This document shows positions 22,883-64,000 of a DNA stretch of 64,000 nucleotides, one piece after another. The first letter of the stretch is position 1. Each line of letters starts with the position of its first letter. Location: positions 123,256,001 through 123,320,000 of the forward strand of contig JBNRSN020000016.1 of the NCBI GenBank assembly GCA_051313645.2, in the 5' to 3' direction. The notes beneath the pieces are model-generated. The model had not been told where the DNA came from. It did no database searches and saw only the letters and a list, made by a program, of their open reading frames with translations. A program made the position numbers and the translations under genes. The stretch is from Centroscyllium fabricii. Its lineage: Eukaryota.

Positions 22883-23015
22883 TTATTCAAAAGCTGCCAT
22901 TAGAAGCTGCAGTTCACGAAAAGCACTGCCTTGACGACCAGGCAGCCCTGCTTTACTCTGAAGAATCGGGAGCAGGTTTTTAAACTGCTTGTAACAAAGC
23001 TTACATTTCTGGTGC
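22883..23015 (-). CDS. KATNB1: KATNB1 last coding exon
   Basis: ctttctcag acceptor; RHQKCKLCYKQFKNLLPILQSKAGLPGRQGSAFRELQLLMAAFE* matches the katanin p80 C-terminus. Confidence 0.93.
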
Positions 23016-25647
23016 CTGAGAAAGGAAAGGGTGGAAAAATGAGTCACAGACACACCAAGACATTTAAAGATAAACAAGAACTTGCATGCATTTTGTAATT
23101 TTATCCAACTTTCCCCATTGCCTGATAAATTAGTCTCTTCTCTCCCCATTCTTGTAAATTACAACTGAATGGTCAGCCAACTCTCCCAGTCTCAATGGGA
23201 AGCGCATTACAACACAAGAATAGTGCATCATTGACGCCTTATCTAAGGAAGCTGGACCTGTGGGAGAGATTTTCCTAATTGCCTTTGAACCTGGCAAATG
23301 ATGAAACATCTGCCATGAACAGCATATGACTTGCATTTGGAATGCAGTAGTTGGGAGTATGTGCATTGACAAGAGGCAGGGAAGGTACAATGAATGGCCA
23401 GCATAGGCAGACAGAGCCCAAAGACACTTCATACAGTCTTGAACCTGTCCAATGATTGGGTGGGAGAGTAAGAGAGGAACTAATATTGAAGGGAATCGAT
23501 AACCAGGTCAGAAGACTTGTCTGGACATACTTGTGCAAAGCCAACCTTAACACAATCTTCTTGTGGAAAAATCTAGCTGTGACTGGGAATTTCATCAACA
23601 GAATATTGGCCTGATGTGATAAAAAGATGGATTGTCTCGTTGTATTGTACCAGTACTCTGCAATGACAATAAAAATTGAATTGAATTGAGTGTTTTTATT
23701 TGGTGCCTTACACCAAATGGCACCAGAGTATGTTGCAACTGTGCGCCTCTTCAAAAAGACACGCTATGCCAGGAAATTATAGACCCGTTATCTTACGTTA
23801 GTTGGTAAATTAGTTTATAAAATCAAATGAAATTACTAAGCACTGGAGAAAGAAATTAGATCAGGTCCAGGAAGCACAGATTTCTAAAGATAGGTTGTGT
23901 TTCACGTACCTTACGGAATTCTTTCAAAAACTAACAAGAAGATAAAGAAAATGCATCAGATGTGATTTATATATAGATTTCCAAAACTTTTGATAAGGTA
24001 CCACATGAGACTTATGGTCAAGATAATCCCATGTGGAATTAAGAGGAATGTGGCCATATGAAGAGAGATGGTTGGAGAGCAGATAGAAAAGAGCAACGGT
24101 AAAAAATGTTTCTTTGCTTGGAAAGATGAGACGACTGGTCTTCCACAAGGGCCTGTTATTTATTATATAAATGACCTGGGTTTAGGAATTGAGGATTTAT
24201 CATCAAAATGTGCTGACACCACCAAATGAAAGAATGGGAAATTGCAACAAGGCTTGCAAAATATTGTAGGAGGATATTGATGGACTCGGATAGGCAGTAG
24301 ATGTAGTTCAATGTAGAAGAATATGAAGTAATGGCTCAGAATTTGCTGAAGAAACATGTCGTTACTAATGCGCAAATCAGTCAGCAACTTGTAGCGAGGA
24401 GGAGATATCCCAGAATTGTGAATCGTTACAAGTTGCTGGACGATTTGTGTCGCTCCGCTGTTAACTTTGCAAAAACGGCATCTCGCCCTTAACCTCCCCG
24501 TGGGTTTCATGAGGTTGCTGCATTTGCATATTACCCATTAACCTCACCACAGAAAATCAAGTAATTAACAGCGCAAGTACCCTTTCAACAACATGATAAT
24601 TGTGAACGACTGCCAATCAACCGCTGTAGTCCAGAAAATTAAAATTAAAAGTGTGGTGTCGCATTCCTTCAGGTTGGGAATTTTTGTTGGGCGATTTTAA
24701 AAATGTCAATTTAAAAAAAATTTTTTTTTTTTTTTTTTTTAAACCCTCTCATTTTCTCTCTCAATCCAATCTTTCTTTCCTTCTTTATCTCTCTGTACCT
24801 GATTGGACATTGAATTAACCCACTCCAATTCACCTTCCTTTTCAGTCCTCCCTGTTTGTCAATCCTTTAAGCTCATTGGTTAAGGAGATAAACAGTTTGT
24901 CCCGTTGTTCACCAGGGTCCCAGTTGCCCTGGCTGCGCCGTTATCAGCTCGCACTTCCAGCAACTCTGGGCAAAAAATTTTAAAAACCTAAACATGCACA
25001 AAAAAGTCTAACTGATGGGCGGGGGCATGCCACGAGATGTCCCGCTTCAATAAAACCTGGGCCAATATATTTTGGAGGTACTAGACAAAGAAATTGCATC
25101 TTAAATGGTAAGATTTTAGATTGAGAAGAGCTTGTGCAGAAACAGGCTGTTGAAGACGGCAGCACAAGTGAGTAAGGCTGCAAAAAACAAACAAACAGAA
25201 TCCTTAGGTTTTGTATCTAGGGGTTGCAATACAAAAAGCACTGGGGTAATGTTAAACTTGCACCAGGGCTGCAGTTGGAATATTGTGCGGGGCTCTGGGC
25301 ACCCTAATATAGCACGGATATGAAACCAGTGGTAAAGTTCAGTGCAGAGTCACTGGGATGTGACCAGGGATGAGGGGTTACAGTTGCAGAGCCATGAGAA
25401 ATTAGGGTTTCTTTCCCCATTAGAGTTGAGAAGGCGAAGGAGGGTCACTGATTATCTCATCATCCTTTATAATCCTGACGAGCACAAACAGTTTGTAATG
25501 GCTGGCAACATGTGAACAAATGGACACAAATAAAGATAATCAAAAAATTGAGATGATGTTAGATGAAATTTCTTTACAGAGGGTGGTTAGAATGAGAGTA
25601 TGTGAATTCTCTACCAAAAACAGTCCATAAATTATGTTAAAAGGGAA

Positions 25648-26105
25648 GACGGTGGCGTAGTGGTTATGTCACTAGACTAGTAAGCCAGAGGCTCAGTCAT
25701 AATGCTCTGAGGATATGGGTTCAAATCCCACCACGGCAGCTGGTGGAATTTAAATTCAGTTCAATTTAATTCTGGAATTAAATGTTAGTCTTAGCAATGT
25801 GGCAACCATGATACCATTGTCAATTGTTGCAAAAACCCATCTGGTTCACTAATGTCCTTTAGGGAAGGAAATCTGCCGTCCTTACCTGGTCTGGCCTACA
25901 TGTGACTCCAGACCCACAGCAATGTGGTTGACTCTTAATGCCCTCTGAAATGGCCTAGCAAGCCACTCAGTTGTAAACAACCACGACAAAAAACAATAGG
26001 ACTGCAGCGGTTCACCACCATCTTCTCAAGGGCAATTAGGGATGGGCACTAAAATGCAGGCTTAGCCAGCCAGCGACGCTCACAGCCCATCAATGAATAA
26101 AAAAA
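25648..26105 (+). mobile_element. tRNA-derived SINE sharing its 3' tail with the second LINE family
   Basis: GGTGGCGTAGTGG A box, GGTTCAAATCC B box, tail GGACTGCAGCGGTTC...GGGCAATTAGGGATGGGC as at 29455-29560. Confidence 0.8.
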
Positions 26106-26216
26106 TAAACAGTTGCTTGAAAGAGGAGTATCAATGGATATTGGGAGCGAGGAGAGTGGGATCAGGTTAGGTAGCTCATGGAGAAAAACAGATCAAGTCT
26201 GTGGCCTGTTTCTATA

Positions 26217-26821
26217 CAGGTACACAATCACTTATCCGAAACCCTTGGGGCCAGATGTGTTTCGGATTTCAGACTTTTTTGGATTTCAGAACGGTAGCAG
26301 GTTTATCGAGCGCTATTTGAAAAGAAAGGAACAGGTAGAGCTTTGTCTACAAATATGTTCCCTGTCGATTCTTTCATTAATAGATAGAATCACATTTTCC
26401 AGATTTACCTCCGTGTATTGCTTCCCGTCATCGGAGACCAGCCGAAACTTGCAAGCCGATAATTCCCCAACGTTTAGCATTAAATCTTCAAAGAGATTTC
26501 CAACAAAGGCCCCGTGCTCCAGCTCCTCAGGAATCGAGTAGTGAATCTGTCCCGAAAATCAGGTCCAACACACGGAGCAGGAAAATAAAAGACGCCCCGC
26601 TGCGGATTGTGTTCGCCATTGTTCTGGGCTGGATTTCCTTGTAAATATCTCCCAAACGCAAATATAAAGCTTTGCCACCAAAATGCTAAGTCGATTGTGC
26701 ATCCAAATACTAAAATTGAACAGAGAACTACAACTCAGGTCATGTGACGCTCCACGAAAAACCTTTAGTTTTTCGGAGGCTTTTCAGATTTTGGAATTGC
26801 AGATAAGGGATTATGTACCTG
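26217..26821. mobile_element. Tigger4/Zombi-like non-autonomous Tc1/mariner element with captured gene cargo
   Basis: TA on both sides; TIR CAGGTACACAATCACTTATCCG vs CAGGTACATAATCCCTTATCTG (19/22); GGATTTCAGA subterminal repeats. Confidence 0.88.
26299..26619 (-). pseudogene. Protocadherin 5' fragment (signal peptide + most of EC1), two frameshifts
   Basis: MANTIRSGASFIFLLRVLDLI/SGQIHYSIPEELEHGAFVGNLFEDLMLNVGELSACKFRLVSDDGKQYTEVNLENVILSINERIDREHICRQSSTCSF/FQIALDKP: YSIPEE, VGN, IDRE and C-X5-C motifs of protocadherin EC1. Confidence 0.9.
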
Positions 26822-27372
26822 TACTACAATATTCTATGATTATAGGAATAGCAAATTCAGGAATATTTGCCAACAAAGGGTTGTGAGAATGTGGAACTCA
26901 CTGCTCTAGAGGAAGGTGAAGTGGGGAAAACAAATAATCCAAGTCCAGTAGAGGTGGTCATTGATGCAAAATCAATCGAGATGTTTGAAAGGAAGATAGA
27001 ATACGACTCGTGAAGTAAAAGTATTAAGGGGGTTTGGAAAAAAGGCAGTGAATTGGGACTGGTCAATGCTGCCATGGCTAACAAACTGGTGGAGCAAGCT
27101 TGATGGGCTGATTTGGGAAAGGAGTTGGCCAATGTGGGTTTAGCACCAAGCCTGAACTCATTGATGGAGTGTAAAAGGAGGGTAGGTCCACTTCTCCCAA
27201 ATGAATTAAGCAAATGAAAAAGTAAAAAATCATTACTCAGTGTAGCACACAAATGGTATGAATTAAGATACTCCAACAATATCATTCTTCATTAAAGTTG
27301 TACAGCGATAAGAACTTGCCAAAGACGACAGGAGTCACGCATTCACCATACTGTGTAGCAGCAGTCACTGAC

Positions 27373-27489
27373 CTTTCTTCCCGTGTTATGTCCACCCCAA
27401 TCGAGGGTGGTGTAACCAGGTTGTCTGCTATTAAGGGCCCAAATCTCTGCAGGATCAGCTTCAGGGAAGTACAGCCTGTCTGCACATAG
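27373..27489 (-). CDS. KATNB1: KATNB1 exon, con80 domain
   Basis: AG/GT; [39 protein letters not shown]. Confidence 0.95.
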
Positions 27490-60673: not shown

Positions 60674-62160
60674 CAATGTTATAAACTCCTCAGTGACCAT
60701 CCCTGGGTATGCCCTGTTCCACCGGCAGCAGAGATCGACCAGAGATGGGGGCACAGTGATGAACAGTCGAGCGAGTGTGTTCCTGGGAGTCCTCAACATC
60801 GACTCTGAACCCCATGAAGTCTCAGATCAAACATGGGCATGGAAATCGCCTGCTGATTACCACTTACTGCCTTTCCTCAGCTGATGAATCAGTACCCCTC
60901 AATGTTGACCACCACCTAGAGAAAGCACCACAGGTAGCAAGGCTACAGAATATATTATGGGTGGGCGACTTCAATGTCCATCTAGAGTGGCTTAGTACAA
61001 CCACTGACTGAGCTGGCCAAGTCAAGAACATTGCTGGTGGGCTTGCAGCAGGTAGCAAGAGAACCAACAGGAGGGAATAACCTACTTCACCTGGTCCTTG
61101 CCAATCTGCCCATCACAGAGGCGTCTGTCCATAACAGTATTGGTAGTAACCTCAGCAGAGTCATAGTATCATAGAATGGTTACAGCACAGAGGCCATTAG
61201 GCCAATCGAGCCCGTGCCAGTTCTCTAGAAGAGCACTTCGGCTGGTCCCACTCCCCTGCCTTTTCTCCGTAGCCCAGCATTTTTCCTCCCCTTCTGGTAC
61301 TTATCCAACTCCCTTTTGAAAGCCACGATTGAGTCTGCCTCCACCACCCTTTCAAGCAGTGCATTCCAGATTCTAACCACTCGCTGCATAAAATGCCGGA
61401 TTAACGGTGTCGGACCTGTATTAGGATAATTAAAGTCCCCCATTATCACTACTCTATAGTTCCTCTAATTTCCATGCTCCTCTATATCCTTCGCACTAGC
61501 TGACGGCCTATCGTAAAACTGTCCCGCGGCCCGGTCCGCGGACCGGCGGTTGGAGACCGCTGGCCTATAGTGTGCAATAACACCTCCATTGTTTTTCAAC
61601 TCTAACCAAATAGATTCTGTCCTTGACCCCTCCAGGACATTTAGCAGTGTAATATTCTCAATTGTGGAGACCAAGTCCTGTTTTCACACCAAGGACACCC
61701 TCCATTGTGTCGTGTGGCACTACTACCATGCTAAGTGGCATAAATTAACAGATCTAGCAGCTCAAACTAGACATCCATAATGTGGATGTCTAGTTTGGAC
61801 TGGGGTGGACAAATGCAAGAAGTCACACAACACCAGATTATAGTCCAACGGTTTTATTTTAAATCACAAGCTTTCGGAGCTCCGAAAGCTTGTGATTTAA
61901 AATAAAACCGTTGGACTATAATCTGGTGTTGTGTGACTTCTTGCATTTAGACATCCATAAGGCACTGTGGACCATCAGCAGAATTGTATTCCACTACAAT
62001 ATACAAACTCATGGCCCTGCATATCCCTCACTCCTCCACTATCTTCAAGTCAGATGACCAACTCTGGTTCAATGAAGAGTGTAAAAGAGCATGCCGGGAG
62101 CAGATCCAGAAAATTAGGTGCCAATATGGTAAAACTACAACACTACATGTATGCATGCCA
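60674..62160 (+). mobile_element. Decayed LINE endonuclease region with several nested insertions
   Basis: IPGYALFHR..RDGG and NILWVGDFNVH APE-like motifs; interrupted by CR1, hAT-end and palindrome inserts. Confidence 0.75.
61811..61948. repeat. Perfect 138-bp palindrome (69-bp arms, no spacer), family of 60078-60296
   Basis: Centre GGAG|CTCC at 61879/61880; TAGACATCCATAA at 61768-61780 and 61948-61960. Confidence 0.95.
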
Positions 62161-62199
62161 CATTCTCTCTCTCCCACCCTCCCTCTCCAGTTTGTGCGT

Positions 62200-64000
62200 T
62201 TCTCTCTCCCTCCCCCCCCACCCCTCTCTCTCCCTCCCCCCCACCTCTCCCTCCCCCCATACCCCTCTCCCTCCCCCCCACCTCTCCCTCCCCCCATACC
62301 CCTCTCCCCATACCCCTCTCCCTCCCTCTCCCCCCCCACTCCCACACCCCCCCTCCCCTCCCTCCCCCCCCACCCCTCTCTCCCTCTCCCCCCCCCCACC
62401 CCACCCACCCCTCTCCCCCCACCCACCCCTCTATCCCTCCCCCCACCCCTCTCCCCCCACCCACCCCTCTCTCCCTCTCTCCCACCCACCCCTCTCCCTC
62501 CCTCCCCCCCACCCACCCCTCTCCCTCCCTCCCCCCCACCCACCCCTCTCCCTCCCTCCCCCCCACCCACCCCTCTCTCCCTCCCTCCCCCCCACCCACC
62601 CCTCTCTCCCTCCCTCCCCCCCACCCACCCCTCTCTCCCTCCCTCCCCCCACCCACCCCTCTCTCCCTCCCTCCCCCCCACCCACCCCTCTCTCCCTCCC
62701 TCCCCCCCACCCCACCCCTCTCTCCCTCCCTCCCCCCCACCCACCCCTCTCTCCCTCCCTCCCCCCCACCCACCCCTCTCTCCCTCCCTCCCCCCCACCC
62801 ACCCCTCTCTCCCTCCCTCCCCCCCACCCACCCCTCTCTCCCTCCCTCCCCCCCACCCACCCCTCTCTCCCTCCCTCCCCCCACCCACCCCTCTCTCCCT
62901 CCCTCCCCCCCCACCCCCCCACCCACCCCTCCCTCCCCCCCACCCACCCCTCTCTCTCTCCCTCCCCCCCCACCCACCCACCCCTCTCTCCCTCCCTCCC
63001 CCCCACCCACCCCTCTCTCCCTCCCTCCCCCCCACCCACCCCTCTCTCCCTCCCCCCCCCCACCCACCCCTCTCTCCCTCCCTCCCCCCCACCCACCCCT
63101 CTCTCCCTCCCCCCCACCCACCCCTCCCTCCCCCCCACCCCTCCCTCCCCCCCACCCACCCCTCTCTCCCTCCCTCCCCCCCACCCACCCCTCTCTCCCT
63201 CCCTCCCCCCCCACCCACCCCTCTCTCCCTCCCTCCCCCCCCACCCACCCCTCTCTCCCCCCCCACCCACCCCTCTCTCTCCCTCCCTCCCCCCCTCCCT
63301 CCCCCCCCACCCACCCCTCCTCCCCACCCCCCCACCCCTCCTCCCCACCCCCACCCCTCCTCCACCCCCCTCTCCCCCCCCACCCCACCCCCCTCTCCCC
63401 CCCCACCCCACCCCCCTCTCCCCCCCCTCCCTCCCCACCCCTCTCCCCCCCACCCCACCCCCCTCTCTCCCTCCCCACCCCACCCCACCCCCCTCTCTCC
63501 CTCCCCACCCCACCCCACCCCCCTCTCTCCCTCCCCACCCCACCCCCCTCTCCCCACCCCACCCCCCTCCCTCCCCACCCCACCCCCCTCTCTCCCTCCC
63601 CACCCCACCCCCCTCTCTCCCTCCCCACCCCACCCCCCTCTCTCCCTCCCCACCCCCCTCCCCCCCCTCTCTCCCTCCCCACCCCCCTCCCCCCACCCCA
63701 CCCCCCTCTCCCACCCCCCTCTCTCCCTCCCCACCCCCCTCCACCCCACCCCCCTCTCTCCCTCCCCACCCCACCCCCCTCCCCCCCACCCCACCCCCCT
63801 CTCTCCCCCCCACCCCACCCCCCTCTCCCTCCCCACCCCTCTCTCCCACCCCACCCCCCTCTCCCTCCCCACCCCCCTCTCCCTCCCCACCCCTCTCTCC
63901 CTCCCCACCCCACCCCCCTCTCCCACCCCACCCCCCTCTCCCACCCCACCCCCCTCTCCCTCCCCACCCCTCTCTCCCTCCCCACCCCACCCCTCTCTCC
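62200..64000 (+). repeat. C-rich low-complexity tract (CCCCA/CCCT/CT units), essentially no G on the + strand
   Basis: Direct reading; runs off the window end. Confidence 0.95.

Follow-up and report, generated by a model that had tools for sequence, protein, structure and literature searches.

A multicopy pogo/Tigger-type element family carrying a protocadherin fragment in the shark Centroscyllium fabricii

The last coding intron of KATNB1 in Centroscyllium fabricii contains the start of a protocadherin coding sequence, set between the inverted ends of a short DNA transposon. How did a piece of one gene come to lie inside a transposon, and has the transposon carried it elsewhere? We addressed this in the 64,000-nt stretch that holds the element (hereafter the window) and in the 7.2-Gb genome assembly. 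We report that the element is very probably one copy of a non-autonomous pogo/Tigger family bearing the ~430-nt start of a clustered protocadherin, likely captured by template switching and likely moved by a 2.27-kb partner with the same ends. Capture followed by true amplification is thought to be rare for animal cut-and-paste transposons, the survey text giving four multicopy families in 100 genomes (PMC8277862). New here is a pogo/Tigger derivative by which a piece of a coding exon reached over 40 sites, and which picked up sequence from a second locus en route.

An element in the last coding intron of KATNB1

An earlier sequence-only reading of the window had described a 605-bp, TA-flanked element with 22-bp TIRs and three mismatches. 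We found the same coordinates and counts, the inverted ends differing at 3 of 22 nt and at 4 of 25 nt. The element and the adjoining exons comprise:

26217..26821, minus strand: pogo/Tigger-type non-autonomous element with protocadherin fragment, 605 bp, one of at least 44 loci
26215..26216, no strand: TA target-site copy, flank adjoining the 26217 end
26822..26823, no strand: TA target-site copy, flank adjoining the 26821 end
26731..26821, minus strand: 5′-end arm; 26744-26819 is 86% identical to L217, the remainder matches cargo-free relatives
26620..26730, minus strand: captured stretch upstream of the protocadherin ATG, 111 nt, likely 5′ UTR or proximal upstream DNA
26299..26619, minus strand: captured coding piece, signal peptide and EC1 to QIALDK(P), broken in the window copy
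26555..26558, minus strand: +1 frameshift private to the window copy, an extra T in a run
26328..26329, minus strand: −1 frameshift private to the window copy, a lost C
26217..26298, minus strand: 3′-end arm, 88-90% identical to the 3′ end of L217-L219 (transposase-coding element)
27373..27489, minus strand: KATNB1 penultimate coding exon, from Katanin_con80 matches and splice sites
22883..23015, minus strand: KATNB1 last coding exon including the stop, from Katanin_con80 matches and splice sites

The 432 nt between the arms are of protocadherin origin. On the minus strand, the ATG at 26619 opens a hydrophobic, signal-peptide-like stretch that is followed by EC1 text in a different frame, as had been read from the letters, and the ~110 bp set apart there as upstream sequence foreign to the transposon correspond to 111 nt of non-arm sequence 5′ of the ATG. 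The +1 frameshift suspected near 26556 falls within the T run, while the −1 frameshift suspected near 26325 exists but lies at the lost C instead. In the majority form of the family, the frame that starts at the ATG stays open over 106 protocadherin codons and continues for another 22 within the arm, and the two frameshifts of the window copy thus arose after insertion. In the predicted founder the reading frame of the cargo is open; in the window copy it meets a stop after 30 codons.

On the minus strand, Katanin_con80 (Pfam) is matched part after part by five ORFs, and the splice sites show that the element lies within intron 23016-27372, which is 4.36 kb long. The proposed location in the last KATNB1 intron, with the cargo in the sense of the gene, therefore holds for the last coding intron; the 3′ UTR may contain an additional intron. 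Cargo and KATNB1 share the minus strand, an orientation implying that the cargo would be transcribed within the KATNB1 pre-mRNA. The copy would then leave with the spliced intron, and is most likely an inert intron passenger.

Two other stretches of the window caught our attention. Directly beside the element, 25800-26110 is repeat-like with an A-rich tail at its end, and presumably resembles a shark SINE/LINE 3′ end. At 62001-64000, a G/C skew of −0.96 and 74% GC likely reflect a C-rich simple repeat.

The cargo and its missing parent gene

The proposal that the frameshifted peptide is a cadherin could be checked directly: Pfam Cadherin_2 matches 26320-26552 of the window with an E value of 2.3e-24, and solved Pcdh10 and Pcdh-alpha EC1 chains match the cargo at 1e-20 to 1e-18. 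When the open copy L003 served as query, its best match was a clustered gene of Heptranchias (85%), with clustered genes of Heterodontus and Pristiophorus at 80-81% and epsilon 8, 9 and 18 of C. milii at 73-74%. A tree of 32 EC1 rows was built from 27 homologue and cargo rows, picked out of 120 listed matches, and five of the genome's own genes; in it the cargo joins shark cluster genes with support of 94/85 and stands away from this genome's non-clustered genes, among them a Pcdh10-like gene. These comparisons identify the probable source as an epsilon-type shark clustered protocadherin variable exon, not a non-clustered delta protocadherin. Epsilon is described as a protocadherin subcluster of cartilaginous fish (PMC2764143).

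The captured piece stops at QIALDK(P), before the last EC1 strand and the DxNDN motif seen in relatives, so any product would be an incomplete EC1 domain. Upstream, neither strand of the 111 nt contains a CGCT box, the mark of the CSE, which is described as a protocadherin promoter element and CTCF site (PMC7811963).

The sequence-only reading had asked for the parental gene to be located; two protein searches of the assembly with P0024 failed to find one. A whole-protein search with a stricter first pass gave no clustered variable exon among the 56 of 368 candidates scored (best full-length match 51%), and a search with the EC2 part gave none among 150 of 347 (best 55%). Both did find non-clustered protocadherins, whose paralogue names we presume save for the Pcdh10-like match, and other cadherins. 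Cluster exons, if assembled, should have matched, since scores of 49-81% were obtained with this query for 16 cluster proteins from other sharks. A Cadherin_tail family search gave no match either, an outcome that carries no weight in that control genes went unmatched too, and tblastn of 120 protocadherins placed no variable exon in C723:1-330 kb, in C1155:251.38-251.60 Mb, or in the 1.975-2.135 Mb, last 70 kb and first 50 kb of C1011. Four loci considered as candidate parents (L019, L031, L032 and L033) were rejected, all being copies with arms.

A constant-region query returned a single decayed match, on the minus strand at L084:1520-1660 (C1155:251.39 Mb). This 5′-cut constant-exon piece is 83% identical to Stegostoma P0100 over 29 aa, with an indel and a stop. 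It lies away from the expected place of the cluster; the 220 kb searched there contain no variable exon, and the next 5 kb no run of nine or more A.

The expected place itself falls at a scaffold end. A diaphanous gene on C723, labelled DIAPH1 by a PDB match and taken by us to be DIAPH1 on grounds of synteny, extends to ~17 kb from the scaffold start. With 33 of 33 candidates scored, its DAD exon did not turn up, although the DAD exons of both remaining diaphanous genes did. IK, a 5′ neighbour of the cluster, sits on a separate 7.9-Mb scaffold. Diaph1 is listed as the first gene 3′ of the protocadherin cluster in human and anole (PMC2764143, Table 1). Because the scaffold ends inside the diaphanous gene, the DAD exon is missing and IK is on a separate scaffold, an assembly gap is far likelier than a real cluster loss, and we infer that the assembly lacks a stretch beside DIAPH1 in which the parent exon is located.

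The empty searches, together with a decayed piece on another scaffold as the only constant-exon match, would also suit a loaded element that arrived by horizontal transfer from another shark, or a host that truly lost its protocadherin cluster. We judge this very improbable, as one gap where C723 ends by the diaphanous gene, and where the DAD exon has gone too, explains everything. It is more improbable still that this shark truly is without a clustered protocadherin locus and retains only ~40 transposon-borne fragments and one decayed constant exon; if true, a jawed vertebrate would be wiring its brain without clustered protocadherins, and the transposon burst would date the loss. Annotators should take note that copies of the element will swell the number of protocadherins counted, whereas the actual cluster appears to be absent from the assembly.

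Among the non-clustered protocadherins, L045 and L046 (C1:117.7 and 118.5 Mb) are near-identical genes in opposite orientation ~750 kb apart, either a recent duplication or an assembly copy.

Copies across the genome and their reading frame

It had been suggested that a multicopy family, if one existed, would be spreading protocadherin 5′ sequence to unlinked sites, and that copies with the same TIR-cargo structure should be counted. We identified at least 44 loci with the same arms and cargo, on 26 scaffolds. They amount to 43 independent insertions, because only L036 and L037 have both flanks in common; the flanks of all other loci are unrelated. With the whole element as query, 40 of 3919 candidates in the genome were scored, and 39 loci resulted. 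A 21-mer taken from the cargo had 27 exact matches, as against none for its reversed control; 25 fell at known loci, and the two further loci are also element copies. A search with a second cargo, described below, brought three more loci carrying the family. From the overlap between searches (25/27; 6/9), the total would be ~45-60 loci. Both ends are kept in 31 of 41 copies analysed, and 18 of those 31 have TA on both sides. The copies diverge from the commonest letter by 4.2% on average (3.4% outside CpG, 11% at CpG), and the family tree is close to a star.

Have any copies been kept for what they encode? We counted 298 non-synonymous and 121 synonymous changes across 40 copies, and 6 that create stops, with the copies' shared descent uncorrected in these counts. 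The dN/dS ratio is 1.06 (p 0.59) against the element's own mutation spectrum and 1.10 (p 0.37) with non-coding rates, and 25 of the 34 indels within the reading frame shift it. We read the family as evolving neutrally, with no sign of function and likely no new gene.

An alternative is that the family, or some of its copies, has been retained for a secreted EC1 fragment or for an RNA that tunes protocadherin or KATNB1 expression. The founder frame, open from the ATG via the cargo into the arm, would allow this, as would the five of 30 translated copies that are open without indel or stop, two more that are open with in-frame deletions, and a cargo that reads in the direction of the transposase gene whose place it took. 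Against these stand the near-neutral ratios and mostly frameshifting indels, the early stop in the window copy and an EC1 that lacks its last strand and DxNDN motif. Moreover, no short protein of the cargo kind occurs among 15 candidates of 70-224 aa (a weak test), and three loci searched against Rfam gave no match. On this balance, retention for function is very improbable.

Carrier, second cargo and formation

The 22-nt end motif has 6594 exact matches in the genome, so copies with the cargo make up a small fraction of a large group of MITEs. Twenty loci sampled from these matches included neither the protocadherin piece nor an arm-to-arm empty precursor, and their 18 resolved elements fall into seven interior classes. 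Viewed separately, this 20-locus sample (L054-L073) contains same-ended MITEs with at least six other interiors, some of them minisatellite-like runs. The same-ended group may hide further captures; a Pfam search with 40 of the 78 ORFs from other MITE interiors gave no match.

The sequence-only reading had left open that the two arms were independent insertions. Both arms, however, match one and the same type of element, a 2.27-kb transposon found at L217, L218 and L219, whose arms are 86-93% identical to those of the cargo family. The three are 95-98% alike; L217 and L219 contain open frames of 595-596 aa with CENP-B_N, HTH_Tnp_Tc5 and DDE_1 domains, and L218/L219 have a damaged 5′ end. The window arm at 26731-26821 corresponds to the 5′ end of the transposase element and that at 26217-26298 to its 3′ end, hence the cargo took the place of the transposase gene, in the same sense. 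The idea of capture by a pogo/Tigger-type TIR transposon thus gains a transposase-coding element with the same arms, and L217 and L219 are candidates for the mobilising element.

These loci came from a DDE_1 search in which 150 of 1715 candidates were scored and 50 of those loci inspected. The top 30 belong to a different Tigger family with other ends, and 17 of 20 further loci are not the partner either. A second Tigger family was seen along the way (L215, L216 and others on C967). Its eight loci on a single 9.5-Mb scaffold all have open frames of the same length, 558 aa, and probably represent either segmental copies or a young burst.

Junctions differ among copies. The 5′ junction is variable, with the longest cargo in L031 and L033; at the other 5′ junctions, the transposase-element arm meets the cargo at 3-nt shared words. 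We read these forms as probable nested deletions of a longer founder. On the 3′ side, nine loci contain a second captured piece of 260-320 nt, which in L024 follows the entire first cargo; the other second-cargo loci look like deletion derivatives of the L024 form. A search with this piece gave 10 loci (10 of 10 candidates scored), nine within the family's arms or cargo. The tenth, L230 (C834:35592642-35592948, 35.59 Mb), lacks arms, is set in unique flanks and shows 91% identity. Its features identify it as the single-copy, non-coding source of the second cargo, and a Pfam search with 80 of the 121 ORFs around it gave no match. The 5′ junction of the second cargo has 3 shared nt, and a piece of 15 nt at the 3′ junction occurs twice in the elements and once in L230. 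Both fit what a template switch would leave.

These observations suggest how the family may have formed. Some 430 nt from the start of a protocadherin exon would have entered an element a single time, when a break in it was repaired with template switching; we infer this repair step by analogy with the second capture. The loaded element would then have moved into TA sites with the transposase of the 2.27-kb same-ended element, presumably acting in trans. L230 would have been captured later, and the L024 form subsequently deleted into derivatives.

In the least probable account, reverse transcription of a protocadherin mRNA loaded a MITE already in place, which then spread. This could draw on a transcript-like start slightly upstream of the ATG and on a captured gene part that is intronless, so that intron loss is no guide, but the cargo breaks off at its 3′ side within EC1, whereas LINE-made copies are usually truncated at the 5′ end; of the poly(A) tail and own target-site duplication that the sequence-only reading had named as its marks, there is no poly(A) (the longest A run in the element is 6) and the sole word shared near the two junctions is 5 nt, is non-abutting and is tied to a private change; and the second cargo derives from non-coding DNA with template-switch junctions.

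Comparison with known capture systems

A literature search, largely of open-access papers, found no published report of a protocadherin-carrying element. As carrier, the element has a TA duplication, short TIRs and a same-ended relative with CENP-B_N, HTH_Tnp_Tc5 and DDE_1, as pogo/Tigger MITEs do. Its arms may resemble those of Tigger4/Zombi and MER46-type MITEs, which are alike in their short pogo-type TIRs starting with CAGG, TA sites and repeated subterminal motifs. We know of no host coding cargo in these mammalian elements.

The closest comparison is with Pack-TIRs. The definition given by Tan et al. (2021, PMC8277862) is a non-TE interior of 100-5000 bp, an unambiguous parent of at least 90% in the same genome, and no segmental duplication or retrocopy. 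Here, the interior is a 432-nt protocadherin stretch between L217-L219-type ends. Flanks differ save for one pair and there is no poly(A), for a stretch that is itself intronless. The chimera occurs at 44 loci, 43 of them independent, with TA on both sides in 18 of 31. For the second cargo a parental copy was found at 91% identity (L230); for the protocadherin none was found, its expected place falling at a scaffold end. On the features tested, the family is a multicopy Pack-TIR, unusually high in copy number and with serial capture.

In the account of Tan et al. (PMC8277862), 100 animal genomes contain 370 Pack-TIRs, commonly carried by TcMariner elements (115/370), with four multicopy families for which template switching is proposed; the elephant shark, the survey's one cartilaginous fish, is given 0. 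The multicopy families they describe likewise hold host DNA between the ends of one TIR element, at distant and separate target sites and with short junction words. The one that is figured consists of three copies of a 5′ UTR piece, whereas here there are at least 43 insertions, a coding cargo and a second capture. Their pipeline requires a unique parental match (PMC8277862), and we would expect such filters to under-count amplified families, making the contrast partly one of method. Our findings suggest that such families escape surveys based on consensus sequences. Shark Tigger MITEs offer a test bed for mechanisms of capture, since the partner element, the intermediates and the signatures at the junctions can all be read here.

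According to Thomas et al. (2014; PMC4224331), the Helibat Helitrons of bats carry exons, UTRs and promoters and have amplified them. They too are vertebrate DNA transposons that amplify host pieces, but they are rolling-circle elements without TIRs or TA duplication, and some of their cargo looks selected, in contrast to none here. Plant Pack-TYPE and Pack-Mariner elements are non-autonomous TIR elements, and Gisby and Catoni (2022; PMC8903248) report that Pack-Mariners gain host pieces stepwise, some of them drawing on several loci. The family described here shares this stepwise, multi-locus gain and differs in its setting, a vertebrate pogo/Tigger element instead of a plant one: it is plant-style gene capture seen in a vertebrate.
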